DNA of 64,000 nucleotides from NCBI GenBank assembly GCA_023265595.1, contig JAHFSU010000002.1, positions 21,105-85,104 of the forward strand. Direction: 5' to 3'. This document shows, in pieces, positions 13,414-45,161 of the stretch; the stretch's first letter is position 1; every line of letters starts with the position of its first letter. Under the pieces are notes generated by a model that searched no databases, was not told where the DNA came from, and saw nothing but the letters and a program-made list of their open reading frames with translations. The stretch is from Deltaproteobacteria bacterium (GTDB lineage: Bacteria; UBA10199; SPLOWO2-01-44-7). The position numbers and the translations under genes were made by a program.

Positions 13414-14855
13414 ATCTTTTTCGCCGAAAAACAATTGATGCCTGTCTTCAAGATATTGCCAATCCCGAAACATCATTAAAAAAAGCGCTGGGCCCTTGGC
13501 ACCTCATCGCTTTAGGGATCGGCGCTATCATCGGCGCCGGCATTTTTGCATCGATCGGCACCGCCGCCGCCGGAGATTTATTAAGACCGGGGGCCGGGCC
13601 GGCCATTATTCTCTCGTTTATTCTCACCGCCATCGCGTGCGGATTTGCCGCCCTCTGTTACGCCGAATTTGCGGCGATGGTCCCCATCTCCGGCTCGGCC
13701 TACACCTATTCCTACGCAACACTGGGGGAACTGATCGCATGGATTATCGGCTGGGATCTCATCATCGAATATGCAGTCGGCAATGTTGCCGTCGCCATTT
13801 CATGGTCGGGATATTTCACACAGCTTCTTTCCGGATTGGGAATACGCTTCCCCGTCTGGCTGGCCACCGATCTGCGCAGGGCATTAGCCAGCCCCGAAAT
13901 TCTGGCGGCCGCGCCCCACATCGGCAATGTCCCGATTGTCTGCAATCTTCCCGCGGCTTTGATCGTATTGGCGATCACATGGATTCTCGTGATCGGCATC
14001 AAAGAGAGCGCTCTTTTCAACAGCGTCATGGTGTTGATCAAACTGATAACGCTGGGCCTTTTTGTGGCGGTCGGATTTTTTTATGTAAAACCGGAAAATT
14101 GGCAACCTTTTATGCCAAACGGCTGGGCCGGCGTTCAGGCAGGGGCGGCCGTTGTTTTTTTCGCCTACATCGGCTTCGATGCGGTCTCCACCGTGGCTGA
14201 AGAATGCCGCAACCCCGCCAAAGATATGCCTCGCGGCATTATCGGTTCGCTCATCATTTCGACAATCATTTATATTATTGTTGCCGTTGTGTTGACCGGC
14301 ATTCTCCCTTTTTCCCAGCTGAATGTTTCCGAACCGCTCGCCTTGGCGTTGCAAAAAATAGGGGCGCATCAATCGGCCGGTTTTGTCTCCTTGGGCGCCA
14401 TTATTTCGATGACGGCTGTCTTGCTCGTTTTTCAACTGGGCCAGCCGCGCATTTTTTTCTCGATGGCCCGAGACGGCCTCTTGCCCCCATGGTGCGCCAA
14501 AGTGCATCCAAAATATCGAACACCCTATGTCACAACCCTCATTACCGGTTTTGTCGTCGCTTTTTTTTCGGCTTTCGCCAGCATCGATGAGATGGTCGAC
14601 CTCACGAACATCGGCACTCTTTTCGCTTTTGTTTTGGTCTGTGTCGGCATTTTGATTTTGCGTGTTCGGGAACCAAACCGGCTGCGTCCCTTCAAAGCCC
14701 CGCTTTTCCCATGGGTACCCATTTTGGGAATCCTCTCCTGTTTTTATCTGATGATGGGTCTGCCGCAGATCACATGGATCCGATTCGGCGTCTGGCTCGC
14801 GGTGGGGATGATTTTTTATTTTGCCTATGGAAGCCGCCACTCACGACTTGGGTAA
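13410..14855 (+). CDS. Amino-acid permease (APC superfamily)
   Basis: ATG at 13410 overlaps the aroC stop (ATGA). ~12 predicted TM helices. N-terminal consensus WHLIALGIGAIIGAGIF. Confidence 0.8.
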   Translation: MNLFRRKTIDACLQDIANPETSLKKALGPWHLIALGIGAIIGAGIFASIGTAAAGDLLRPGAGPAIILSFILTAIACGFAALCYAEFAAMVPISGSAYTYSYATLGELIAWIIGWDLIIEYAVGNVAVAISWSGYFTQLLSGLGIRFPVWLATDLRRALASPEILAAAPHIGNVPIVCNLPAALIVLAITWILVIGIKESALFNSVMVLIKLITLGLFVAVGFFYVKPENWQPFMPNGWAGVQAGAAVVFFAYIGFDAVSTVAEECRNPAKDMPRGIIGSLIISTIIYIIVAVVLTGILPFSQLNVSEPLALALQKIGAHQSAGFVSLGAIISMTAVLLVFQLGQPRIFFSMARDGLLPPWCAKVHPKYRTPYVTTLITGFVVAFFSAFASIDEMVDLTNIGTLFAFVLVCVGILILRVREPNRLRPFKAPLFPWVPILGILSCFYLMMGLPQITWIRFGVWLAVGMIFYFAYGSRHSRLG

Positions 14856-16418
14856 TGCCAAACGGTTTTTCCATTGTCTGATTTTTTTTCGGGCGGTGGG
14901 GGTCAAGACATCCCAGAAAAGTTCATCCAAAAAAGCAAAACGATTGGGGTGGCGCTCTCTCGAGTCGTCTGAAAAGCCGCCGTTTGTCGCAAAATAGAGG
15001 TGTGCGGTTTCCGCAAAATCTTCGGCGCGGTTTTTCTGCGCATATTCGCTGGGGCTGCTGGCGTCGCCCTGCATCGCTTTAAGCCACCCGCAATGATTTG
15101 CCAAATGGGAATCCCCAAACCGATACCACGCGATATGATGGCCCAATTCGTGATAGAAGGTGTCTCGTGTCAGGAGACCCATCTCAAAGCGACTCATAGC
15201 TTCTTCAGATCGTTTGAAAAAAGTGATTGTTCCATATCCCGCATTGGCTGCATAATGATTCGGGTCCGTTTTATCCAGAATGCGTATTCGTTTCAGTCCT
15301 GCCAGCAAATCATCCGGAACGGTCTTTAGAATATCGACAATCATTTGTGGCGTGGGTGTGGTGTAATGGAGGCCGTCATCGGGAATCAGTTGCGAGGCCG
15401 AGATTATAAATATCTTTTCACCTTTTGAAAAACATTGATTCATTTCATCCTCTCTTGCCTTTGCCGGTATTGATTCTGTCATAGGCTTTGCCTCAGAGCC
15501 TTTGATAAAAACAGATGAATGAGGCCGCCCCTGTTTCAGCAGTCTTTCCATCGTGCCCGTTTCTTGAGTTAGATATCTGGCGGGTCGTAGGGTTGAACGG
15601 GTTAACGAGGCAGGGACAAACGGGGCAAAATAATAGGGCTCCAGCAAATCGTCAGGGCCTATAATCCGATAATCTTCGGGAAAACCAGATTTTTCCGGTG
15701 CGTTGGCGTTGCAAAGTATCAAAGCGCCGGTCACGCAAAAATCGGCCACTCTCCATTGTTCCCCGCCGTAATACAAAACCAGATTATCATCATGATGGGC
15801 ATTCAAAAAATATCTTGCGTTATGGGCCAATCTTTTAAAATGGGGGTTGTCGCTAAAGTGATAGGGGGCATTGGCCACCGTAAAGACGCGGATTTTTGCG
15901 GGTAAAATATCCGGATCAATGATGCTCCCCAATCTTTTTCCGCGCAGTTTTAGGCCAAGGCCTTTTTCCTGTTTTGAAATTTCCATGATTTCGAGACTTT
16001 CCGGATTGAAAAGAATGTTGCGATCGTAGAAGACCCATCGCTCATCGTCTTTGCGTTTTCTTGTTTTACTTTTGTTCCCACTCTTGATGAGTATTTCCGC
16101 TATTCCCTCCACCGGCTGGAAAAGCTTGATCCGTTTAGCAATGGCCTGACGATCCGGTTTTAAAATCTCCTGCCACTTTTGGGGGTCGATCTTTTTGAAT
16201 GTATCAATAACGGCCGCTCGGTCGGATACCGTTTTTTCATCTGAAAAATCTGCCGGAACGGCCCCGCCTTCTCTCAAAAGAGGGACGGCCTCCAATAAAA
16301 TGGGGGCAATTTGACCATAAGGGGCTTGAGTCCCCTCCAAGGCCCCTGCCGCCTCTATGGGGGTCATAAAGGTCCTTAGGCCAAGCAAGAAAGATGAGTT
16401 GAGTATTTCGTTCATCAA
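14841..16418 (-). CDS. Hypothetical cytoplasmic protein with an HExxH zinc-metallopeptidase-like motif (HELGHHIAWY)
   Basis: 525 aa. No signal peptide. One HExxH with a downstream Glu. No family recognised by eye. Confidence 0.5.
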   Translation of the reverse strand: MMNEILNSSFLLGLRTFMTPIEAAGALEGTQAPYGQIAPILLEAVPLLREGGAVPADFSDEKTVSDRAAVIDTFKKIDPQKWQEILKPDRQAIAKRIKLFQPVEGIAEILIKSGNKSKTRKRKDDERWVFYDRNILFNPESLEIMEISKQEKGLGLKLRGKRLGSIIDPDILPAKIRVFTVANAPYHFSDNPHFKRLAHNARYFLNAHHDDNLVLYYGGEQWRVADFCVTGALILCNANAPEKSGFPEDYRIIGPDDLLEPYYFAPFVPASLTRSTLRPARYLTQETGTMERLLKQGRPHSSVFIKGSEAKPMTESIPAKAREDEMNQCFSKGEKIFIISASQLIPDDGLHYTTPTPQMIVDILKTVPDDLLAGLKRIRILDKTDPNHYAANAGYGTITFFKRSEEAMSRFEMGLLTRDTFYHELGHHIAWYRFGDSHLANHCGWLKAMQGDASSPSEYAQKNRAEDFAETAHLYFATNGGFSDDSRERHPNRFAFLDELFWDVLTPTARKKIRQWKNRLALPKS

Positions 16419-16475
16419 TAGAGTTATCGGCAGATTTCAGAAAAAGTTGCCTATAAATGCTTGCATTCCTTATTT

Positions 16476-28354: not shown

Positions 28355-28972
28355 TTAAGGGGTTTGAAACAAAATGAGAAATTCCCTATTTCCATCGGCG
28401 CCGGAAATAGGGGACGAAGTGACGCCGAGACATTCCCACCCCTCTTGAAGTCCGGCCTCTTGAATCTGCGTGACAGCCCATTCATGAAGTTTGGGGTCAT
28501 GGACAATCCCCCCTTTTTCGACTTGGGTTTTGGCCACTTCAAACTGCGGCTTGATCAAGGCGATGATTTTTGCGTCGGGGGCCAAAAAAGGCCTCAAAAC
28601 CGGAAAAACTTTTTTGAGCGAGATGAAAGAGAGGTCGAGGGTTGCCAGTTCAATCGGCTCTTGAATTTTCTCTTTTTTTAAGGCGCGGATATTTTGCCTC
28701 TCGATGACGACAACTTTAGGGTTTTGGCGAAGAGGCCACGCCAGTTGCCCGTAGCCGACATCAACCGCATAGACTTTTTGAGCGCCGTGCTGCAACAGGC
28801 AATCGGTAAAACCACCGGTCGAGGCGCCGATATCGATGCAAATTTTATTTGATGGATCGACCTTGAATTCTTTTAAAGCCTGCTCCAGCTTCAAACCGCC
28901 GCGGCTCACATATTTTTTTTGAGCCTTCTTAGCACGAAGCTCTTCCGCAATTTGCGCAAGCGTTTTTTTCAC
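28355..28972 (-). CDS. TlyA-family FtsJ-like rRNA 2'-O-methyltransferase lacking the N-terminal S4 domain
   Basis: …YVSRGGLKLEQAL…IDIGASTGGFTDCLLQHGAQKVYAVDVGYGQLAW… matches TlyA. It is only 205 aa, and the YVSRGG block sits at residue 22 instead of ~65. Confidence 0.7.
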   Translation of the reverse strand: MKKTLAQIAEELRAKKAQKKYVSRGGLKLEQALKEFKVDPSNKICIDIGASTGGFTDCLLQHGAQKVYAVDVGYGQLAWPLRQNPKVVVIERQNIRALKKEKIQEPIELATLDLSFISLKKVFPVLRPFLAPDAKIIALIKPQFEVAKTQVEKGGIVHDPKLHEWAVTQIQEAGLQEGWECLGVTSSPISGADGNREFLILFQTP

Positions 28973-29421
28973 TTCTTCTTTTTAAGCTGTTTTTGAACTT
29001 CTTCGAGATATTTGAGGTCCTCCAAATCGACATTCCTGCCTGCGGCCTTTTTCATTTTAATCAAATCTTCCAGGGAAGAAAAATAAACAGTTTCATCACA
29101 TAACTTTAAAGGCACTTTGTTTTGCCATAAAGTCTCAAACCGGACTCCCGCCGCAAAGGGATGGATATCCAATTCCAAGATATACTTTCTGAAAAGAATT
29201 TTTTTTTGGAGAGCCTCTTCAACGGTAGTATCCTGTAAATCATACCCAACGTTTTGTAACGCTTTAAAAAGACGTTCGACATTTTCACGTGTGGGTTCTA
29301 CGAAAATGTCTAAGTCTTTAGTGGTGCGAACAAGACCATGCGCAATCACTGCAGCACCTCCAATGATGACAAAATTAACATTATTTTCTTTTAACGATTT
29401 GAGGAGTTGTTTGGTGTCCAT
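28969..29421 (-). CDS. Small nucleotidyltransferase-fold protein (minimal NTase-like; h-G-G…D-x-D motif)
   Basis: 150 aa. VIIGGAAVIAHGLVRTTKDLDIFV resembles the GS/GG…DxD core of pol-β-superfamily minimal NTases. It is wedged between lon and tlyA with a 4-nt overlap. Confidence 0.4.
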   Translation of the reverse strand: MDTKQLLKSLKENNVNFVIIGGAAVIAHGLVRTTKDLDIFVEPTRENVERLFKALQNVGYDLQDTTVEEALQKKILFRKYILELDIHPFAAGVRFETLWQNKVPLKLCDETVYFSSLEDLIKMKKAAGRNVDLEDLKYLEEVQKQLKKKK

Positions 29422-35817: not shown

Positions 35818-38052
35818 TTAATGATCATAATTAATTATCGGGTTCAAGGGGAATTTTTCCTCTGCCAGCTCTGCTTCTATTTCCTCGGCAATACGTTGCT
35901 TTTCCAATGCAAGGAAGAAATCATCTGCACGGTGAACTTTTTGACTTTGCCTCGTTACGAAGGACCTAAGTTCATCAACGATAATCTTTAAGTATATTTC
36001 TATTTCTTTTCTTTTATCCTTTATCCCCATCCAACTCACAATAAACTTTAATTGATGTATTCTCTCCCCCGGGTGAATATTCACAATATGTGGAAACTGG
36101 CGGGCGGCAGTCGCCGCCTTCATCTGAATATCCAATGGGAGTTCAATACGCCGATCTTCCGAATCAAATCCGGGAAGGAGTTCCGAAATATGAAAATTGG
36201 CTGTCTTTGCCGCAAGGTGATCATCAGCCATGGCCTTTAAAATAGCCTCTTTTTCTTCTTCTAAAAAAGGGCTCTCAGTATGCGACAATCGCATCTTGAA
36301 ATATTCCTTCAAAATATAAGCGCTAAAGAGATAAGCACCCCGCTCCGCAAGAATAGACGAGCGATTCCCGGCTGGAAAAAACCCGCTCAAATTTTTGTAT
36401 CCATCCATGTTGTGAAAGATCTCATGAGCCAAAATCTGCAATCTTTCGTAAAAAGGTTTCAAAAAACCATTTTGAGGATTGGCGTACTCGACTTCTATAT
36501 TTTTAAAAAGCGCTCTCGCAAAGCCGGCCGCACCTTCTATTTTCAGCGTCGAATCCAGCGCCACCGTATCCACCGATTGAACCGCCAAATCATAAACAGG
36601 AACACCTCGGTAAGCAATTTCTTTTAAAACATCCAATTCACTTTCCAAAGGATTGTCGGAGCGGGGGTAGGCTTCGAACGGCACAACCAGACGTCCCTTT
36701 TTGAAGACATCGGCCCAATGAGCCGGCTCCGGCTTGGTCCAGAGAATATCATCGGGCAAAACTTTTTCGTGATAAAGATTTGCTGATTGGGCCAATAGAT
36801 CAGAGACGCCAAAAGGAATTTTGGCAGATTTAGCATCAAAAATATAATGGCCCATAAACATATTAAAGAAAAAATCATTCTGACATTGGTTCAGGGCGGA
36901 GCCGCCGCGTTCCAACTCCAACCGGATCGATTCAGAAATAGCGCTCAAAAAATCATTGCGGACTTTGTAGTTGTCGAGACGGCTCTCGGTTTCAAAGGCT
37001 CGTCGCGCAGCAACAAAAGGCTTTTTAATCTTATCCAACAGATCGGGGGTCCATTTATCTTTGTAGGCTTGTTGGAACATCGAAATAAGGGAATCGATCA
37101 TTGCAATTTCACCTTGAGTTTGTGTGAATCCCCTCACCCCCAACTCCACAAAAAAAGCGTACGATTTCAAAAAGTGCTGAACCCTCTCTTCAGAATTTTG
37201 CGCATTCCTCCCTTCTAAAAAAAGATTTTTGGAAAATTCGATAAGTTCTGGATCGTTCAATTTGGGCAAAACCTCCAAATATTCCGGAGAAAGGCCGCGC
37301 GCCATCAGGGCCGTTTTGTATTCTTCCCGATATTTTTGATGATATTCCCTTGCAACCTTTACGATCTCTTCTTCAGAAAATCGCGACCGGAAATATTGGT
37401 TCACTACGAGACCGTTTTTCCAATCTCCATCGTCAAAAAGCAAAACTTCTCCATCAAAACTTTTCAAAAACTGCAGGGTATTAGAATGACCCATTTCAAA
37501 CATTTCTTGCAGAGAAGGATTCTCTTTTTCTATGCGGTAGATCAAACCACGGGATTGGGAATTGAGATCGGGGGCCGCCAAAATAGAGAGCCGCCTGATT
37601 TCGGGCCGATCGGCTTGGGCCAGATATTCGGGATTTTCAAATGCGATTCGCTCAATAGCTTTGAGCCAATTTTTGAGAGATAAAAAGGCCGTCAAATCAG
37701 CGACAGGGGCCTCGTGCGATTTTTCATCATAACGAAAGACCCTTGCCTCCAGCTCTTTCAGATGGATCAACAATTCCGGAATACTTAAATTGCGGACTTG
37801 CGCCTCAAAGGCCTCGGCAGTGGCATAAAGCTGCGGGTATTTTACGGCAGGAGAATCCGGATGGATGAGATCGACAACGGAGCGGAAGGTATCGATATCT
37901 TTTTTGGCGTCATTGACTTTAGGTTGATGGGCAGTCGGATCCGGATCGGTCTTTTCTAAGGCTAAAGCGATTTGTTTTTCACAAAACGCTCTCGCTTTTT
38001 TACCGGATATTTCAAAAGGCATAAACAATGGCCCCCAAATAGTTATCGGCAC
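35818..38052 (-). CDS. Large hypothetical protein with a single HExxH motif (ILAHEIFHNMDGY…AERGAY); putative gluzincin-type metallopeptidase
   Basis: 744 aa with a GTG start. No signal peptide. An HExxH with a Glu ~20 aa downstream is the only recognisable feature. Confidence 0.5.
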   Translation of the reverse strand: MPITIWGPLFMPFEISGKKARAFCEKQIALALEKTDPDPTAHQPKVNDAKKDIDTFRSVVDLIHPDSPAVKYPQLYATAEAFEAQVRNLSIPELLIHLKELEARVFRYDEKSHEAPVADLTAFLSLKNWLKAIERIAFENPEYLAQADRPEIRRLSILAAPDLNSQSRGLIYRIEKENPSLQEMFEMGHSNTLQFLKSFDGEVLLFDDGDWKNGLVVNQYFRSRFSEEEIVKVAREYHQKYREEYKTALMARGLSPEYLEVLPKLNDPELIEFSKNLFLEGRNAQNSEERVQHFLKSYAFFVELGVRGFTQTQGEIAMIDSLISMFQQAYKDKWTPDLLDKIKKPFVAARRAFETESRLDNYKVRNDFLSAISESIRLELERGGSALNQCQNDFFFNMFMGHYIFDAKSAKIPFGVSDLLAQSANLYHEKVLPDDILWTKPEPAHWADVFKKGRLVVPFEAYPRSDNPLESELDVLKEIAYRGVPVYDLAVQSVDTVALDSTLKIEGAAGFARALFKNIEVEYANPQNGFLKPFYERLQILAHEIFHNMDGYKNLSGFFPAGNRSSILAERGAYLFSAYILKEYFKMRLSHTESPFLEEEKEAILKAMADDHLAAKTANFHISELLPGFDSEDRRIELPLDIQMKAATAARQFPHIVNIHPGERIHQLKFIVSWMGIKDKRKEIEIYLKIIVDELRSFVTRQSQKVHRADDFFLALEKQRIAEEIEAELAEEKFPLNPIINYDH

Positions 38053-38116
38053 TAAGGGGGCCGAAGTTGCGTGCCACCATTTCCAGAATCCGTCACTTAA
38101 ATTTTTCTTACTTTTT

Positions 38117-38165: not shown

Positions 38166-38369
38166 CTACATTTCCAACCCGGCTTGTTTTAAAATGGATT
38201 TCAAAAGGCAGGGTCCGATAATTTTTTCACTATGGACAGGAACAGTAACCTTTCGTCCTGTTGCGGGATTTACAAAATGTTGATGGGAACCCATGGAATC
38301 ATAAAGATTAGCGGTAGATTTCTTTTCGATGCCCCACTTTTTCAATCGTGACGGTTTGAGAGGCATCAT
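38166..38369 (-). CDS. hicA: HicA-family toxin homologue (orphan; no hicB found)
   Basis: …SMGSHQHFVNPATGRKVTVPVHSEKIIGPCLLKSILKQAGL matches the HicA consensus (GSHh.F.hP…VtVP.H…gTLksIlKQAGL). Its N-terminus overlaps the 3' end of the RelE-like gene by ~60 nt in another frame. There is no room for hicB downstream. Confidence 0.5.
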   Translation of the reverse strand: MMPLKPSRLKKWGIEKKSTANLYDSMGSHQHFVNPATGRKVTVPVHSEKIIGPCLLKSILKQAGLEM

Positions 38370-38565
38370 CGATAAGATAAACAACACGATAATCACCCTG
38401 TCTGACACGCCAATATGCGTCCCCTTTCAATTTTTCTGCACCTGGCGGTCTTGGATCAAGGGTTAACTGACGGATTTTCATCACCAGTCGTTTTCGATCT
38501 TCTTTGGGGATTGGTTTGAAATCCTTTTCAGCACTTCTCTTGATGATAAGATTATAAGAGGCCAT
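38308..38565 (-). CDS. RelE/ParE-family type II toxin
   Basis: 85 aa with the C-terminal RelE-like block …YRVVYLIDDASQTVTIEKVGHRKEIY. Overlaps the upstream antitoxin by 14 nt. Confidence 0.7.
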   Translation of the reverse strand: MASYNLIIKRSAEKDFKPIPKEDRKRLVMKIRQLTLDPRPPGAEKLKGDAYWRVRQGDYRVVYLIDDASQTVTIEKVGHRKEIYR

Positions 38566-38782: not shown

Positions 38783-38843
38783 AAAACCTCCTCATCGTTA
38801 AAGCATCATAACGTTATGACGTTAAAATGTCAAACGTGAAATG

Positions 38844-38925
38844 TGCTCCCGGCAGGATTTGAACCTGCAACCCTTTCGGGACGGCGTTCTAAGCGCCGCG
38901 CGTATGCCAATTCCGCCACAGGAGC
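38844..38925 (-). tRNA. tRNA-Leu (anticodon TAG), type II with a long variable arm
   Basis: Manual fold of the reverse complement. Acceptor GCTCCTG/CGGGAGC + A. Anticodon stem CGGCG/CGCCG with loop CTTAGAA. Variable arm CCCGAAAGGG. T-arm GCAGG-TTCAAAT-CCTGC. 82 nt. Confidence 0.85.
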
Positions 38926-40311: not shown

Positions 40312-40716
40312 TCAAACTAAAACAGTTTGGGCCCAAGAAGTAAATCGTTCCACTTTTTTTGCAAAATCATGGGCGGCGTCTTGCGTAAAACGACGGGGCT
40401 CATATTCAACAAGATTTTTCAAGTTGATAATTTCGATCAGCCGGTCTGCATTTCTTTTTGCTTCCGTCGAGGAAAGGGCTTGCAATAAAAGGTGGGCACA
40501 GTCCTGATGGGCTTTTCCGGAACTCCGTTTTCCCAGATACAATGTGGTAATGGCATCATTAAAACTAATACAAGCATGAATGCCATTAAGAAGAACAGCA
40601 TCCCATTCCCCGTCTTGCAGGCATATCAGCATCACATCAAAGAATTGTTTTCCTTTGTCCTGATAGTTTTTATATTCGTTTTTTTGGATGCTCTTCGTCG
40701 AAATTTGTTTTACCAT
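40312..40716 (-). CDS. HEPN-domain protein (putative toxin of a HEPN/MNT pair)
   Basis: 134 aa. R-x5-H motif (GKRSSGKAH). Overlaps the upstream MNT gene by 47 nt. Confidence 0.6.
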   Translation of the reverse strand: MVKQISTKSIQKNEYKNYQDKGKQFFDVMLICLQDGEWDAVLLNGIHACISFNDAITTLYLGKRSSGKAHQDCAHLLLQALSSTEAKRNADRLIEIINLKNLVEYEPRRFTQDAAHDFAKKVERFTSWAQTVLV

Positions 40717-41329
40717 CCGTGATAATCTCCGTCAGCATCTTTCCGTAAATGACTTTGCCCTCTTTCGCGATGTTGATAATTAAAGGATCTTTGGATTGCA
40801 ATCTCTTTAAAAAATCACCCGCATGCAGTGATTTGATATTCACAAAATTGCCGTAATAGCGGACAAAATCTTGAGCCATAGAATCGAATAGAGATTCATC
40901 TGTAGGCAAAGGATATTGATCCGCATACAGAAGAAGACAATCGAGATCGCTGGAAGCTGTTTCTTCCCCCCTTGCCGTACTGCCGAATAAAATAACGGAA
41001 ACAGGCTGTGGTTTTAGTTGTACAGCCAATTTGTCTCCTAAATCCGACAAAAGACCTCTTTCAAATGCAAGAAGAGGAAAAACCGCTTTTTGTACAAAAA
41101 TATGGTCTCGATTCAACTCGTAAAGGTGCGCTTTTCCCACTACTTTTTCAAAAAGAATGCCCTGCGTAACCAACTCTCTTAAAACATGACTCATTTTAAA
41201 GGTTGATGTTTTAGCCATAATGGCCAGTTGACGTCCTGTTACGCCCATGTTTTTCCCTGATAGAATTTTAAAAACGCGAATAAATATAGGGTCTCCCAAA
41301 AGTCGTTCAAGATGATTTGTTATATACAT
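40670..41329 (-). CDS. Minimal nucleotidyltransferase (MNT) with an N-terminal winged-HTH; putative antitoxin/regulator of the HEPN/MNT pair
   Basis: GSTARGEETASSDLDCLLL is the GSxARG…SDxD pol-β NTase signature. The N-terminal ~70 aa are HTH-like (ILSGKNMGVTGRQLAIMAKTS…). Confidence 0.75.
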   Translation of the reverse strand: MYITNHLERLLGDPIFIRVFKILSGKNMGVTGRQLAIMAKTSTFKMSHVLRELVTQGILFEKVVGKAHLYELNRDHIFVQKAVFPLLAFERGLLSDLGDKLAVQLKPQPVSVILFGSTARGEETASSDLDCLLLYADQYPLPTDESLFDSMAQDFVRYYGNFVNIKSLHAGDFLKRLQSKDPLIINIAKEGKVIYGKMLTEIITDGKTNFDEEHPKKRI

Positions 41330-41334
41330 ATCGC

Positions 41335-41358
41335 ATATGTTATATTAATATAACATAT
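41335..41358. promoter_or_regulatory. Perfect 24-bp palindrome ATATGTTATATTAATATAACATAT in the divergent promoter region between the MNT/HEPN operon and the giant AAA+ gene
   Basis: Seen directly. The reverse complement is identical. It sits 6 nt from the MNT start codon and ~130 nt from the AAA+ gene start. Confidence 0.5.
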
Positions 41359-41489
41359 ATTATTTTGCAATCTTATAATTACCCCCTCCTCACTTTAATT
41401 TTTGAGCAAGCAACTTTGGGGGGCCCTTCCGCCGATAACTTTATTGGATAGGGGTGGTGTACTATACGGGGAGAGAAGGGATAAAAATT

Positions 41490-44400
41490 ATGGGTGATGC
41501 AAAAATAAAAAACGATTCCCTTTTTAATGAGGGAATTCTTCCTCCTTCTAAAGACGTAGACCGCACCTGTATCGATTACGAAACCATCGAAGAGGTACCG
41601 GTGATTGAAGTAGAAGGTGGCCTTGAAATAGATAAAGATAATTTTGAAGATGTTCGTCGTGTCTGGCTGGGTTATGAAGATGGGAAACCTTCCGTAAAAT
41701 ATTATGAGCCGGGTGAAGGGGAGAGGGCAATACAAGAATCGTTGGACAAACTAAAGCAAGAGGGGAAAGATCCGGAAAATTCTCCCGGCCCCCACCATAT
41801 GTCCGGTTTTCCGGCAGATCAAAAGGGGAACCTTCTTATCCAAATGCTCCAACAAAAAACGTGTCGATATACGGCAAGAGAAAAGGATGAGGAGGCTTCT
41901 TTATATAGGGAGAAAGATGTTCGTAAAAAGCAACACCATAAACTGGGCCGTGCGGAAAAGCCTGATAAAAACGGAAAATTTAAAATCTATTTCTATAAAG
42001 AGAGCCCCAAGCTGGATGTCCCTTGCCAAACCATGGGATTCGTCCCCTTAACGGAAGTTAGAGGGCGGGCCGATATCATTCGCCTCATTAAAGCCGGTGA
42101 GTTGGTACCGGGTACCGATTACTGTATCGGCGGAATCGAAAAAAATCCGAGACTCCTGTTTAATCCAACTCGTGTAGAAGGCTATGTCGATCCTATCGTT
42201 ATCCCTAATATTCTTAAATCGGGTCTCTTTTCAAACGAGATGGAAAAAAGGGTCAAAGCCGACATTGAACGAGCAACAAATACAGAGAGAGAATCTATTT
42301 TGCGGCAGAAAGAATCAGCCGATTTACAAAAACATCAGGTTGAATCACAGCCGTGGTTAATGAGTATTAACACATTCGTAGCCTCTCTGATTGGTGTTGG
42401 CCCCATGTTATGGATCTCCAGAAGACAGATGCAAATGATGAGGGAACAGTTGGGACTTCAAAAAGAACAGATGGGAATTATCCGGGAACAGATGGAAGGG
42501 GGAAAGAAGGAGCCTATTCTCCCTAAACTCAGAGATATAACGCAAGAAGCAAGAGAAGGAAAAATCAAACCGGTCTCGCCAAGACTGTGGCCTGCCATCA
42601 AACAACTTGCCATTAATTTGAGCAAAGGAAAATTGGCAAACCCGACCTTGCTCGCGGAAAATGGAGTTGGCAAATCGGCCGCTGTTGAAGGTTTAGCCTT
42701 GGCTATTGTCAACGGCATTCTTCCTGATGGAACACCCTTACCGGATCATTTGAAAGGAAAAAGAATTTTAGAGGTAAGCGCCGGAGAACAGTTTTCAGCC
42801 ACCAAGGGAGGAGAATATCGCGGAGTCATGGAGGCCAAATTCAGGCAGTTCTTGGAAGAGGTCAAAGCCGCCAAAGATGTCATCCCCTTTATTGATGAAG
42901 TTCATGAATTGGCCAAAGCGGGACAAACAGAGGGTTCAGCAGGTATTGCACAGATGTTCAAAGCAGGGACAGCCCGAACCAATGAGTTTCAATTTATCGG
43001 AGCAACAACCAACGAAGAATTTGCTAGACATTTTGCGGGGGACAAGGCGCTTCAAAGCCGTATGCCACCCGTTGAGGTAGCAACTCCGGATGCCAAAGGG
43101 GCCATAGCTGATCTACGGTTCACGCGCGAGGCCAATGAAGCCCACTACGGAAGAAAAATTCCGGACGCAACAATTGATGAAATAGTGAGACTTTCAGAAC
43201 CGGCCACTTATACCAACTTTCCTAGAAAGGCATTTGATCTGCTGGAAACCGTTGCCAAGCAGATGGATATTGAAGGAGACACAAGTGGCACCATTATACC
43301 GGAAAGAGTTCGGGCTTATGTTGAATGGAAAAGTCTGGATGCCGTAGCCAATGCCACTTCCGAAGCATGGCGTGAGGCGAATCGTCCCAAACTGTCTCTA
43401 CAAGAGATTCGTGTGATACAGGAAAGAAGTATCGGAGAGACTTTGCAAGTATTGGTTCGGGATGCAGAAAAATTGTCCGACCTTGTATTAGAAAAAATTG
43501 TTACTACCCTCACGAATTCATGGGAGGCTCTCAAACCCGAGGCAAGAGCCGGGCTCACTCCCCCCGGAACAGCCGATTTTGCCATTCCACAACGTTTTGT
43601 CGAAGTTTCGTTAAGCGGCATCAAAGATCATTTAGGCATCCAATTAATTCCTCAACCTGTCGTTCCAGCTCCGCCAATTATTTCAGGTGGTGGAGGGACG
43701 GGAGGCCCTGCCCCAACAGGAGGAACATCCGGCACCGGCGGCACACCGCCAACCGGAGGTGGAGCACCTACCGGAACCCCTTCGCCGGCAAACCCAACAT
43801 CTTCTCCGGCACCGGCTTCCGGAGCAACCGCTTCGGCAACGGCTAGAGTGATGGAGACAACAACGACCTCCCCTGAAGCTCAAGCTCTGAGAGCATTAGA
43901 AAAAAGTACCACCGCATTAGAGGTGATATTGGGTTCAAAAGTAATGCCCCATATTGATGTCCGCGTTCCGGTCGGATTGGCAGCAACGACAGGAACAGCT
44001 GCGGCCTTTCATATTGCAGATTATTTTGGTGTTCCTTCCTATCTGACAGGCAGTGCCGCCTTGGGAGCGCTTGCGTGGACTGTTCGCAGTAATCCGGTGG
44101 CAGGCGTTTGCACTGCCGTAGTTCATGCCGGATATTTTATGGCCGGTGCCTATCCTGCCACAGCGGGACTTGCCGACTTGCGAGGCGAGGAGAAACCGTC
44201 TCTCACAACACATCTGGTTGGTGATTTAGCAGGGGGTGTCTCGTGGACTATTATTAATAAAGCCAATGGTGGCGGCGGTCCCGAAAAAATGCTTATTGCC
44301 CAAGCTGAACAGGCCGTCATCGGTTTAAGAATGTATGGTAAAGAAATTGCGGCCGGAGCTTCTGCAACCGCCACAACAATGGCGGCCTATGCCAGAAATG

Positions 44401-44831
44401 CAGGGTCTGTGATGGCGGCAGGGGCACGTGCTTTGGCCAGTGAAGCTGTGGCAACCGAAGGGCTGATGACTGCCGGAGCCACGGTCGGAGGGATCATCGC
44501 TTTTGCGCCGTTTCTTATGGGAATGGCCGGAGAGGAAGATGTGGCTTTGATGCTTGCCGGTGATATCAAACATCGCGACTCCGAACTGAAAAAATTAATC
44601 CGTTGGGCTCTGAACAGCGATCAATTGGATATCGATTGGTATGGAGCCGAATTAGATCGCAATGGATTAAAGGGAACGAAGCACGACGACAGCCAAATCA
44701 TGAAAAACAATCGTCTGTTCATGAAGCACTTCACCGCGCTGGCGAGAGCAAAGGAAAATGGTGATGAAGAGGCCACCAACAAGGCCCGCGAAAATTTCGT
44801 AAAAACTTTTCCGGAATTGGCCAGAAAGTAG
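41490..44831 (+). CDS. Large (1113 aa) multidomain protein: unknown N-terminal domain (~290 aa) with a hydrophobic segment, coiled coil, a single ClpA/ClpB-D1-type AAA+ module, a Gly/Pro/Thr-rich disordered linker and a Gly/Ala-rich hydrophobic C-terminal domain (~330 aa)
   Basis: Start at the ATG 9 nt after GAGAAGGG. The AAA+ core aligns with ClpB D1: Walker A NGVGKSAAVEGLALAIVNG, Walker B VIPFIDEVHEL, sensor-1 FIGATT, Arg finger ALQSRM. The pre-AAA helix (LRDITQEAREGKIKPVSPR) also matches. There is no D2 or ClpB middle domain. The C-terminus (…GASATATTMAAYARNAGSVMAAGARALASEAVATEGLMTAGATVGGIIAFAPFLMGMAG…) looks like glycine-zipper membrane helices. Confidence 0.8.
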   Translation: MGDAKIKNDSLFNEGILPPSKDVDRTCIDYETIEEVPVIEVEGGLEIDKDNFEDVRRVWLGYEDGKPSVKYYEPGEGERAIQESLDKLKQEGKDPENSPGPHHMSGFPADQKGNLLIQMLQQKTCRYTAREKDEEASLYREKDVRKKQHHKLGRAEKPDKNGKFKIYFYKESPKLDVPCQTMGFVPLTEVRGRADIIRLIKAGELVPGTDYCIGGIEKNPRLLFNPTRVEGYVDPIVIPNILKSGLFSNEMEKRVKADIERATNTERESILRQKESADLQKHQVESQPWLMSINTFVASLIGVGPMLWISRRQMQMMREQLGLQKEQMGIIREQMEGGKKEPILPKLRDITQEAREGKIKPVSPRLWPAIKQLAINLSKGKLANPTLLAENGVGKSAAVEGLALAIVNGILPDGTPLPDHLKGKRILEVSAGEQFSATKGGEYRGVMEAKFRQFLEEVKAAKDVIPFIDEVHELAKAGQTEGSAGIAQMFKAGTARTNEFQFIGATTNEEFARHFAGDKALQSRMPPVEVATPDAKGAIADLRFTREANEAHYGRKIPDATIDEIVRLSEPATYTNFPRKAFDLLETVAKQMDIEGDTSGTIIPERVRAYVEWKSLDAVANATSEAWREANRPKLSLQEIRVIQERSIGETLQVLVRDAEKLSDLVLEKIVTTLTNSWEALKPEARAGLTPPGTADFAIPQRFVEVSLSGIKDHLGIQLIPQPVVPAPPIISGGGGTGGPAPTGGTSGTGGTPPTGGGAPTGTPSPANPTSSPAPASGATASATARVMETTTTSPEAQALRALEKSTTALEVILGSKVMPHIDVRVPVGLAATTGTAAAFHIADYFGVPSYLTGSAALGALAWTVRSNPVAGVCTAVVHAGYFMAGAYPATAGLADLRGEEKPSLTTHLVGDLAGGVSWTIINKANGGGGPEKMLIAQAEQAVIGLRMYGKEIAAGASATATTMAAYARNAGSVMAAGARALASEAVATEGLMTAGATVGGIIAFAPFLMGMAGEEDVALMLAGDIKHRDSELKKLIRWALNSDQLDIDWYGAELDRNGLKGTKHDDSQIMKNNRLFMKHFTALARAKENGDEEATNKARENFVKTFPELARK

Positions 44832-44837
44832 CGGCTG

Positions 44838-45161
44838 TCAAGCTACTGCTTTGAAAAGAAGTTTGATTTTTAGGACCTTGAGAATTTCTAAAAAACTGGA
44901 AAATTCGGGATTACCGTTCTTCGACAAGGCGCGATAAAGAGTCATCCGACTTAAATGAGTCCGTTTGGCAACCTCGCCCATGCCACCGGCCGCTTCGGCG
45001 ACATTGCGAAGGGCTTTGAGAATCATTTTTTCATCCCCTTCTTCTAACACAACATTAAGATATCCTGCTGCAAGTTCCGGATCCTGTAAATCTTTGATTA
45101 AATATTCATGACGGCTAACACTTCTTTTATCTTCTTTCATAACTTTTTCTCCGATTGCCAA
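44838..45161 (-). CDS. HigA-family 'addiction module antidote' HTH protein (TIGR02684-like), orphan
   Basis: 107 aa; …AAGYLNVVLEEGDEKMILKALRNVAEAAGGMGEVAKRTHLSRMTLYRALSKNGNPEFSSFLEILKVLKIKL matches this family along its length. No RelE/HigB-like killer gene is adjacent. Confidence 0.65.
   Translation of the reverse strand: MAIGEKVMKEDKRSVSRHEYLIKDLQDPELAAGYLNVVLEEGDEKMILKALRNVAEAAGGMGEVAKRTHLSRMTLYRALSKNGNPEFSSFLEILKVLKIKLLFKAVA

Follow-up and report, generated by a model that had tools for sequence, protein, structure and literature searches.

The 64-kb stretch of contig JAHFSU010000002.1 analysed here (the window) carries a gene for an AAA+ ATPase, hereafter the AAA gene, whose product founds a very small family of single-ring Clp/Hsp100 D1-type proteins, confined to an uncultured lineage and encoded at a fixed chromosomal position. 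The motor is of a well-known kind. New are the architecture, two domains without family match and the setting of its regulation, and public data contain hardly any other members. We tentatively favour an explanation in which the product would be a lineage-specific, fast-evolving and vertically inherited Clp-D1-type threading ATPase, working as a single ring, tethered to the membrane and belonging to a sigma-28 programme. The open reading frame (ORF) lies on the + strand, ends at 44831 and starts either at 41454 (GTG) or at 41490 (ATG). The ATG form (41490-44831, stop codon included) encodes 1113 amino acids (aa) and has a likely ribosome-binding site, GGAGAGAAGGG, 10-20 nt 5' of the ATG. Public collections hold the identical 1113-aa ATG form (P0001) on an 86.7-kb contig, and a second contig (L002) encodes the identical protein.

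The Clp/Hsp100 D1-type AAA+ module occupies residues 343-610 (42516-43319, +) and includes, besides the large subdomain and the lid, a pre-Walker helix (ILPKLRDITQEAREGKI). In NCBIfam, residues 343-605 matched the D1 of ClpB (E = 5e-43), ClpV/TssH (3e-40) and ClpA (8e-36), as well as the D1 part only of the ClpG/ClpK models. The matches cover only model positions ~155-409 of ~850, stopping at the end of D1, and their scores are about one tenth of the family cut-offs (147.6 bits for the whole-protein ClpB model vs a cut-off of 1232). Pfam identified AAA at 389-508 and, weakly, AAA_lid_9 at 538-605, and the closest PDB match was the D1 of ClpC (E = 9e-37). Along the whole large and small subdomains (residues ~343-610) the protein could be aligned to the D1 of ClpB, ClpC, ClpA and ClpV/TssH at 33-38% identity, sharing with these class I proteins the pre-Walker helix, Walker A and B, a Tyr pore loop, sensor-1, one Arg finger and the PxKAxDL lid motif. 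The alignments to ClpC and ClpB gave AENGVGKS as Walker A, FIDEVH as Walker B, EYRG as pore loop, GATT as sensor-1 and FPRKAFDL as lid motif. The second Arg of the ClpB 'RR' pair, the Arg finger, is kept in the window protein, whereas the first is replaced by Ser, Ala or Gly in the family. The pore-loop aromatic, both Walker motifs, the sensor-1 Thr and one Arg finger are retained in all five full-length members of the family at an overall identity of 27-34%, and the family is set apart by a PDGxP insertion behind the Walker A helix. As far as the motifs tell, the sequence prerequisites for hexamer formation, ATP hydrolysis and substrate threading are present. An initial annotation of this DNA had already recognised the central D1 module with its Walker A/B, sensor-1 and Arg-finger motifs, and this identification was confirmed.

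Nearly all known Clp/Hsp100 D1 modules form the first ring of chaperones and unfoldases that are soluble and have two rings. The protein described here, in contrast, has one AAA+ ring. Clp_N, AAA_2 and ClpB_D2-small gave no match in Pfam. The Clp N-domain, the M-domain coiled coil and D2 are absent, as the initial annotation had stated. No P-loop was found after residue 610, where the chain is modelled as all-helical, and the region of the ClpP-docking loop, which would sit in the missing D2, is lacking as well. Further differences from class I Clp are the replaced first Arg, the PDGxP insertion, the new N- and C-regions and candidate membrane segments on both sides of the motor. Judged by its sequence, the protein is not a canonical Clp chaperone. 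Peptidase_M41 was not found in Pfam, nor is there any HExxH motif in the chain.

A word-indexed search of 5.8 billion proteins retrieved, besides ordinary Clp, a single relative (P0002, 34% identity over residues 28-725). When 1.84 billion cluster representatives were searched exhaustively with HMMER and the resulting two-member profile, P0091, P0092, P0101 and P0100 were added, and the family amounts to six sequence clusters among these representatives, the five other members being all metagenomic and of the same layout. The stronger members scored at least 260 bits, and the other listed HMMER hits covered the AAA core only and did not exceed 233 bits. With 172.0 and 171.9 bits, respectively, P0100 and P0101 fall in the Clp range; they were recognised by their matches beyond the AAA core. 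P0100 is a contig-truncated fragment, which leaves the window protein, P0002, P0091, P0092 and P0101 as full-length members. The common layout consists of an N-domain, a hydrophobic helix, an ILPxLRN helix with D1, a helical domain, a Gly/Pro-rich linker and an Ala/Gly-rich C-region. No relatives were found in JGI metagenome contigs or in IMG/VR viral contigs, and a scan of GTDB species genomes, whose representatives do not include the window's own genome, gave only ordinary Clp D1 hits in Chloroflexota and Clostridia. A word-indexed search with the N-region alone missed the query's own entry and was counted as uninformative rather than as absence. A similar search with an AAA-deleted six-member profile missed P0002, itself a row of that profile, and was treated in the same way. 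Low-complexity Gly/Ala/Pro words probably flooded the candidate list, and since the searches missed their own positive controls, word-indexed negatives for such sequences are not to be trusted. Outside the AAA core 0 of the 6 members match Pfam or PHROGs, the family profile has no match among PDB sequences and the window protein none in PADLOC (E <= 0.01), so that the initial annotation was right in finding the architecture unfamiliar. P0092 (L013, 875-4879) carries a partial internal duplication, an insertion of ~250 aa after the linker (about residues 700-1000) in which a lid-like segment (ITEEAIRVAV...PLPGKAMPLFETA) and a helical one occur again before another Gly-rich linker.

The gene order in the window is lon - clpX - clpP - tig - p734 - a HicA-like ORF and a ParE/ribbon-helix-helix (RHH) pair - tRNA-Leu(tag) (38843-38925) - an M20 peptidase gene - a HEPN-like gene and a helix-turn-helix minimal nucleotidyltransferase (HTH-MNT) gene - the AAA gene, which lies on the opposite strand from the M20 side. 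Beyond it follow a convergent HigA-like gene, p386 and a Tad pilus operon. The tRNA-Leu noted nearby in the initial annotation is thus indeed there. At the locus of P0101 (L012) the order is lon - clpX - clpP - tig - a gene for 401 aa - tRNA-Leu(tag) - M20, and on the opposite strand a Tyr-rich gene - the AAA gene - a DUF4258/MqsA-like pair - RtcB. At that of P0002 (L001) the M20 gene is directly divergent from the AAA gene and the gap between them is free of toxin-antitoxin (TA) genes; this contig ends ~50 nt past the AAA stop, with the downstream side unseen. The P0100 locus (L014) reads AAA - two small genes - a HigA-like gene with a Gp49/HigB-type toxin gene - a p386 ortholog - the Tad operon. 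The arrangement tRNA-Leu(tag)-M20-AAA beside tig-clpP-clpX-lon, seen in the window and in L012, is an inherited backbone. Between these two loci ClpX is 82% and M20 61% identical, and the AAA protein 27%; between the window and L001 the values are 61% for M20 and 34% for the AAA protein. The AAA gene evolves much faster than its neighbours.

The N-terminal domain (residues 1-287; 41490-42350, +) is without family match and of mixed alpha/beta character. It can be aligned across the five full-length members, and its signatures Y..I.D.PVC, RVW and CRS are kept across the members; the AlphaFold2 model that we obtained for it from two sequences was unusable (mean predicted local distance difference test, pLDDT, 41). 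It is followed by a charge-free hydrophobic helix, PWLMSINTFVASLIGVGPMLWISR (residues 288-311; 42351-42422, +), a candidate transmembrane anchor with a Kyte-Doolittle (KD) hydropathy peak of 1.52, which reads in the sequence as a stretch with Trp at both ends, 19 residues apart, and then Arg-Arg. The next segment (residues 312-340; 42423-42509, +), predicted to be helical, contains the Q/M-rich coiled coil of the initial annotation (about residues 312-338). It is real, and it is an insertion specific to the window protein, a gap in the other four full-length members; the lack of any recognisable family in the N-region and the hydrophobic stretch, claimed together with it, both stand.

Behind the motor, a model of residues 602-1113 was built from the six-sequence alignment. 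The post-AAA helical domain (residues 611-722; 43320-43655, +) was modelled with confidence (pLDDT 65-87), and its Ser647, Trp678, Pro683 and Phe703 are invariant across members. The linker that follows (residues 723-790; 43656-43859, +) is rich in Gly, Pro, Thr, Ala and Ser (G 24%, P 21%, T 18%, A 15%), and all members have one of like composition at the same position; with pLDDT ~30 and no secondary structure in the model, it is probably disordered. The Ala/Gly-rich C-terminal region (residues 791-1015; 43860-44534, +; A 21%, G 12% and T 10% over 791-1010) was modelled as helical, but with a pLDDT of only 24-50. It can be aligned across the six members, all of which (6/6) have a strongly hydrophobic Gly/Ala-rich segment near the C-terminus. 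The charged tail (residues 1016-1113; 44535-44831, +) varies between members, and the model shows helices in its last ~47 residues, where the pLDDT averaged over blocks of 10 residues is 54-87. Foldseek comparison of this model with the PDB gave only matches with E > 1. The initial annotation had described the C-terminus as a series of glycine-zipper-like hydrophobic helices after a Gly/Pro/Thr linker; linker and Gly/Ala-richness are borne out, but membrane-grade hydropathy (KD 1.75, the peak of the region) is reached in the single segment 990-1015, the remaining C-terminal segments being weaker.

Several features outside the motor point to where the protein might work. In 5/5 full-length members the motor is preceded by a hydrophobic segment (KD 1.4-1.8, with 0-1 charged residues) and then a cluster of Lys and Arg. 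The N-regions of these five proteins contain 4, 4, 4, 6 and 4 cysteines vs 1-2 in the remaining ~750 aa; in the window protein it is 4 of 5, and four are kept though two have moved. The helix followed by Lys/Arg, its Trp ends and the confinement of the cysteines to the N-region fit together, and suggest a topology in which a disulfide-bonded N-domain is exported, the chain crosses the membrane once, the motor lies in the cytoplasm and the C-region associates with the membrane.

The AAA gene also has its own conserved sigma-28-type promoter-like element. When the DNA upstream of the AAA gene (window and L001) and of the Tyr-rich-AAA gene pair (L012) was aligned, a single conserved block, GCAACTyT-n12/13-G(C/A)CGATAACT, stood out from otherwise unalignable sequence. 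In the window it reads GCAACTTT-n13-GCCGATAA(C) (41410-41439, +) and ends 51 nt before the ATG. The sigma-28 (FliA) consensus is TAAAGTTT-n11-GCCGATAA (PMC2859248; PMC12784957), and the -10 of the element agrees with it at 8/8 positions; the spacer is 13 at the AAA gene and 11-13 across six copies. Such agreement does not by itself establish that a gene depends on sigma-28. The pattern GCAACT-N15-20-CGATAAC occurs 3 times in the 64-kb window vs 0.00 expected, each time just 5' of a large gene without known family: besides the AAA gene these are p734 (35818-38022, -), with a copy at 38042-38070 (-) 20 nt from its ATG, and p524 (14841-16415, -), with a copy at 16423-16450 (-) 8 nt from its ATG. 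The remaining copies are found in L012 (5224-5260, -) 7 nt before the 401-aa gene, which takes the place that p734 has in the window, in L012 upstream of the Tyr-rich gene (6779-6807, +), and in L001 before the AAA gene (1676-1705, +). The two copies located 7-8 nt before an ATG suggest leaderless transcripts. A reading of the element as an extracytoplasmic function (ECF) sigma site, with 'AAC' as -35 and 'CGA' as -10, was considered and dropped, because the -10 matches the sigma-28 box exactly.

The products of p734 (734 aa) and p524 (524 aa) carry HExxH zinc-protease motifs, HEIFH in one and HELGH followed by AEDFAE in the other. Neither has a signal peptide, a membrane segment or a Pfam or NCBIfam match, they show no similarity to each other, and BLASTP detected no homology of p734, p524 or the L012 401-aa gene to the AAA protein. 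Of the attack-phase promoters of Bdellovibrio bacteriovorus, 66% have a sigma-28-type motif before them, among these the promoters of proteases, surface proteins and many uncharacterised genes (PMC3627812). The likeness to this attack-phase regulon lies in the -10 box and in its position before non-flagellar genes, protease-like and family-less proteins among them (PMC3627812), and since non-flagellar Bdellovibrio genes carry the motif, a sigma-28-type promoter need not mean a flagellar role. Unlike in sigma-28 (FliA) regulons, the -35 of the element is GCAACTT and not TAAAG or TTAAG. A perfect palindrome of 24 bp (41335-41358), unique in the window, lies ~50 nt 5' of this -35 and immediately upstream of the HTH-MNT gene; it would most simply be the operator of the HTH-MNT module itself.

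In the explanation that we favour, a membrane-tethered threading ATPase of a sigma-28 programme, the protein would form a hexameric ring and thread polypeptides through its Tyr/Phe pore loops. Two elements would keep the ring at the inner membrane, the hydrophobic helix before the motor and the Gly/Ala-rich segments near the C-terminus; as the helix sits directly before the motor, the entry face might be turned toward the membrane, by analogy with FtsH or Msp1, and the Cys-bearing N-domain would lie outside the cytoplasm. Substrates would be membrane, envelope or exported proteins, extracted or otherwise handled within the sigma-28-controlled programme. The protein would then be neither a general chaperone nor a TA or defence effector, and the adjacent TA modules would be unrelated insertions at a variable spot.

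The proposed likeness to FtsH consists of the hydrophobic helix directly before the AAA+ module, the putative membrane-facing entry and a possible extracytoplasmic domain before the helix. Unlike FtsH, however, the protein has no M41 domain and one helix before the motor instead of two; the similarity is limited to the generic AAA+ fold, its motor being of the Clp D1 and not of the classic FtsH/Cdc48 lineage. Msp1/ATAD1 and Bcs1 are N-terminally anchored single-ring dislocases or translocases of organelles, eukaryotic and of a different AAA+ clade. By analogy of architecture, they would have in common with the AAA protein one transmembrane helix (a candidate here), one ring, aromatic pore loops and no protease partner in the chain, but they are without a large domain before the anchor or a Gly/Ala-rich C-region.

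Several observations weigh against this explanation. The hydrophobic segments reach only borderline hydropathy (KD peaks of 1.4-1.8), simple Hessa sums for them are positive, and the ~285-aa N-domain has no signal peptide, yet a topology with the N-terminus outside requires its export, which is unusual in bacteria. With no fold or homolog for the N- and C-regions, no substrate or partner can be named. The -35 of the promoter-like element agrees with the E. coli sigma-28 consensus TAAAGTTT at only 5/8 positions, and no gene for sigma-28, another sigma factor or a flagellar component is found within the 64-kb window. TA-type genes adjoin the AAA gene in three of the four loci with enough flanking sequence, which makes a functional link possible. 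Finally, a sigma-70-like site (41350-41379, +, 10/12), not enriched over shuffled sequences, overlaps the palindrome and faces the AAA gene, and it is possible that the inserted module adds some control of this gene.

A bolder version, which we consider rather doubtful, would make the protein a novel inner-membrane machine in which a Clp-D1 ring tethered on both sides carries a disulfide-bonded periplasmic sensor or receptor and a Gly/Ala-rich conduit and moves proteins out of or across the membrane. It would do so in a life-stage programme under sigma-28 that resembles the attack phase of a predator, together with the HExxH proteases. If the more modest explanation of a membrane-tethered threading ATPase is true, a stand-alone D1 ring fused to new domains and membrane anchors would show Clp motors working in a membrane-tethered form, a task that bacteria otherwise leave to FtsH. 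The sigma-28-type promoter common to several family-less proteins offers a starting point, as it defines a small set of possibly co-regulated genes in an uncultured lineage.

The company of the HExxH proteins could be read differently, with the AAA protein as an effector that the cell exports or injects during a life stage controlled by sigma-28, much like the attack phase of predators; it would be delivered with the co-marked HExxH proteins and insert into the membrane of a target cell rather than that of the producer. The type of promoter is shared with two HExxH proteins devoid of signal peptide and, in L012, with another family-less protein, and the AAA protein also has no signal peptide and evolves far more quickly than its neighbours. 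Many attack-phase genes of Bdellovibrio that are not flagellar are driven by sigma-28 (PMC3627812), and one neighbour's ClpX (a protein in the same 90%-identity cluster as the ClpX of L012) has the label 'Deltaproteobacteria'. This single source label is all that the taxonomy comes from, however, and that the organism is a predator is a guess. The AAA gene has no linked secretion signal, chaperone or secretion-system gene, the nearby Tad pilus genes are not known to export such cargo, and an ATP-dependent motor of 1100 aa would be unusual as a secreted protein. We consider delivery as an effector unlikely.

In the P0101/P0092 branch a conserved gene (L012 6823-7491, + and L013 3-866, +; 56% identity) ends 4-8 nt before the AAA start. 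Its product is rich in Tyr, Phe, Pro and Gly and looks aggregation-prone (e.g. GGRYFYGSYFSPAYAG). Clp D1 modules are classic unfoldase and disaggregase motors, and the AAA protein could be a cytoplasmic remodelling or assembly factor for one aggregation-prone client, which in this branch would be the Tyr-rich protein, with the hydrophobic segments serving in oligomerisation or client binding rather than as anchors in a membrane. The tight linkage of the two genes speaks for it, and so does the L012 copy of the promoter-like element, whose position upstream of the Tyr-rich gene implies an operon. But neither the window nor L001 has the Tyr-rich gene, whose product therefore cannot be a general client, and the Trp-flanked helix followed by Lys/Arg and the pattern of cysteines fit a membrane topology better. 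On balance such a cytoplasmic role appears improbable.

The initial annotation had seen the gene as cargo of a TA or defence island, proposing that its product could be an effector whose Gly/Ala-rich C-terminus permeabilises a membrane, in this model that of its own cell, when triggered by the AAA+ module, and that the palindrome is an operator shared with the MNT/HEPN operon. Much of the setting is as described. TA-type genes do flank the AAA gene in the window, and L012 and L014 have TA-like pairs directly downstream; the palindrome is in the divergent intergenic region, with the overlapping sigma-70-like site facing the AAA gene, and the C-region is hydrophobic, Gly/Ala-rich and conserved. 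Library matches supported the MNT (Polbeta/NTP_transf_2/MntA), ParE with its RHH partner, the HicA-like and the HigA-like (dnstrm_HI1420) assignments, and the MNT protein matches the PADLOC candidate systems PDC-S09 and PDC-M05A. The 'HEPN' ORF (40312-40716), in contrast, had no match in Pfam, NCBIfam, PADLOC or PDB, its name resting on its position and an Rx6H motif. What is not supported is the link to the AAA gene. Only the window and L002 have the MNT/HEPN-like pair with the palindrome; both are absent from the orthologous loci L001 and L012, for which reason the pair looks like a recent insertion with its own operator. The palindrome, real and unique as it is, would probably not be a shared one, and the AAA gene has its own conserved promoter-like element. 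A survey of the neighbourhoods, which the initial annotation had proposed, showed that the TA families differ by locus, a DUF4258 gene with an MqsA-like gene in L012 and HigBA in L014, the HigA-like gene being the sole TA gene shared between loci (window and L014). GC content at third codon positions is 0.34-0.39 in the MNT, HEPN-like, ParE and HigA-like genes, which looks foreign, 0.43 in the AAA gene, like tig, p734 and p386, and 0.52-0.60 in lon, clpX, clpP and M20. The AAA gene itself is fixed in the inherited housekeeping backbone, PADLOC had no match for its product, viral contigs had no relative, and the C-region showed neither homology nor fold match to pore-forming domains (glycine-zipper or helical toxins), although its model is of low confidence. 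Taken together, these results make a defence effector very unlikely; a membrane-permeabilising C-terminus gated by the AAA+ module would, as such, still be conceivable. As TA modules accumulate beside tRNA genes, lying among them does not by itself assign a gene to a defence island, and genome scans should take into account that such modules pile up at these variable spots. That the AAA gene is a decaying Clp remnant fused to low-complexity sequence, as its linker, its Ala/Gly-rich C-region and the very low identity between orthologs might suggest, is scarcely credible given a frame open over 1038-1334 aa in five genomes, invariant catalytic, pore-loop and several non-AAA columns, and a conserved promoter.

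Some minor observations concern the TA-type genes themselves. In the window (40312-41358) the HTH-MNT gene, which codes for an ArsR-like HTH and a Pol-beta-type nucleotidyltransferase, overlaps that of its 134-aa Rx6H partner. The HigA-like gene of the window (44838-45140, -), which converges on the AAA gene, is without a toxin partner; its ortholog in L014 (2308-2942, -), 66% identical, still has a Gp49/HigB-type toxin gene upstream, and the window has lost this partner. The HicA-like ORF (38166-38408, -; Pfam E = 6e-13 over the last 40 residues) overlaps the ParE gene by ~100 nt, has no HicB partner and is not called as a gene in the public record, and may be a remnant. Between lon and an FtsJ methyltransferase gene, a 150-aa nucleotidyltransferase (28969-29421, -; DUF6036/DUF2204, with a weak AbiEii match) is, by its sequence, a further TA-like element within the housekeeping block. 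Downstream of the AAA locus in L012 (11328-14719, -), beside an archease gene, the gene for the RtcB RNA ligase is interrupted by an intein (Pfam RtcB - Intein_splicing - RtcB).

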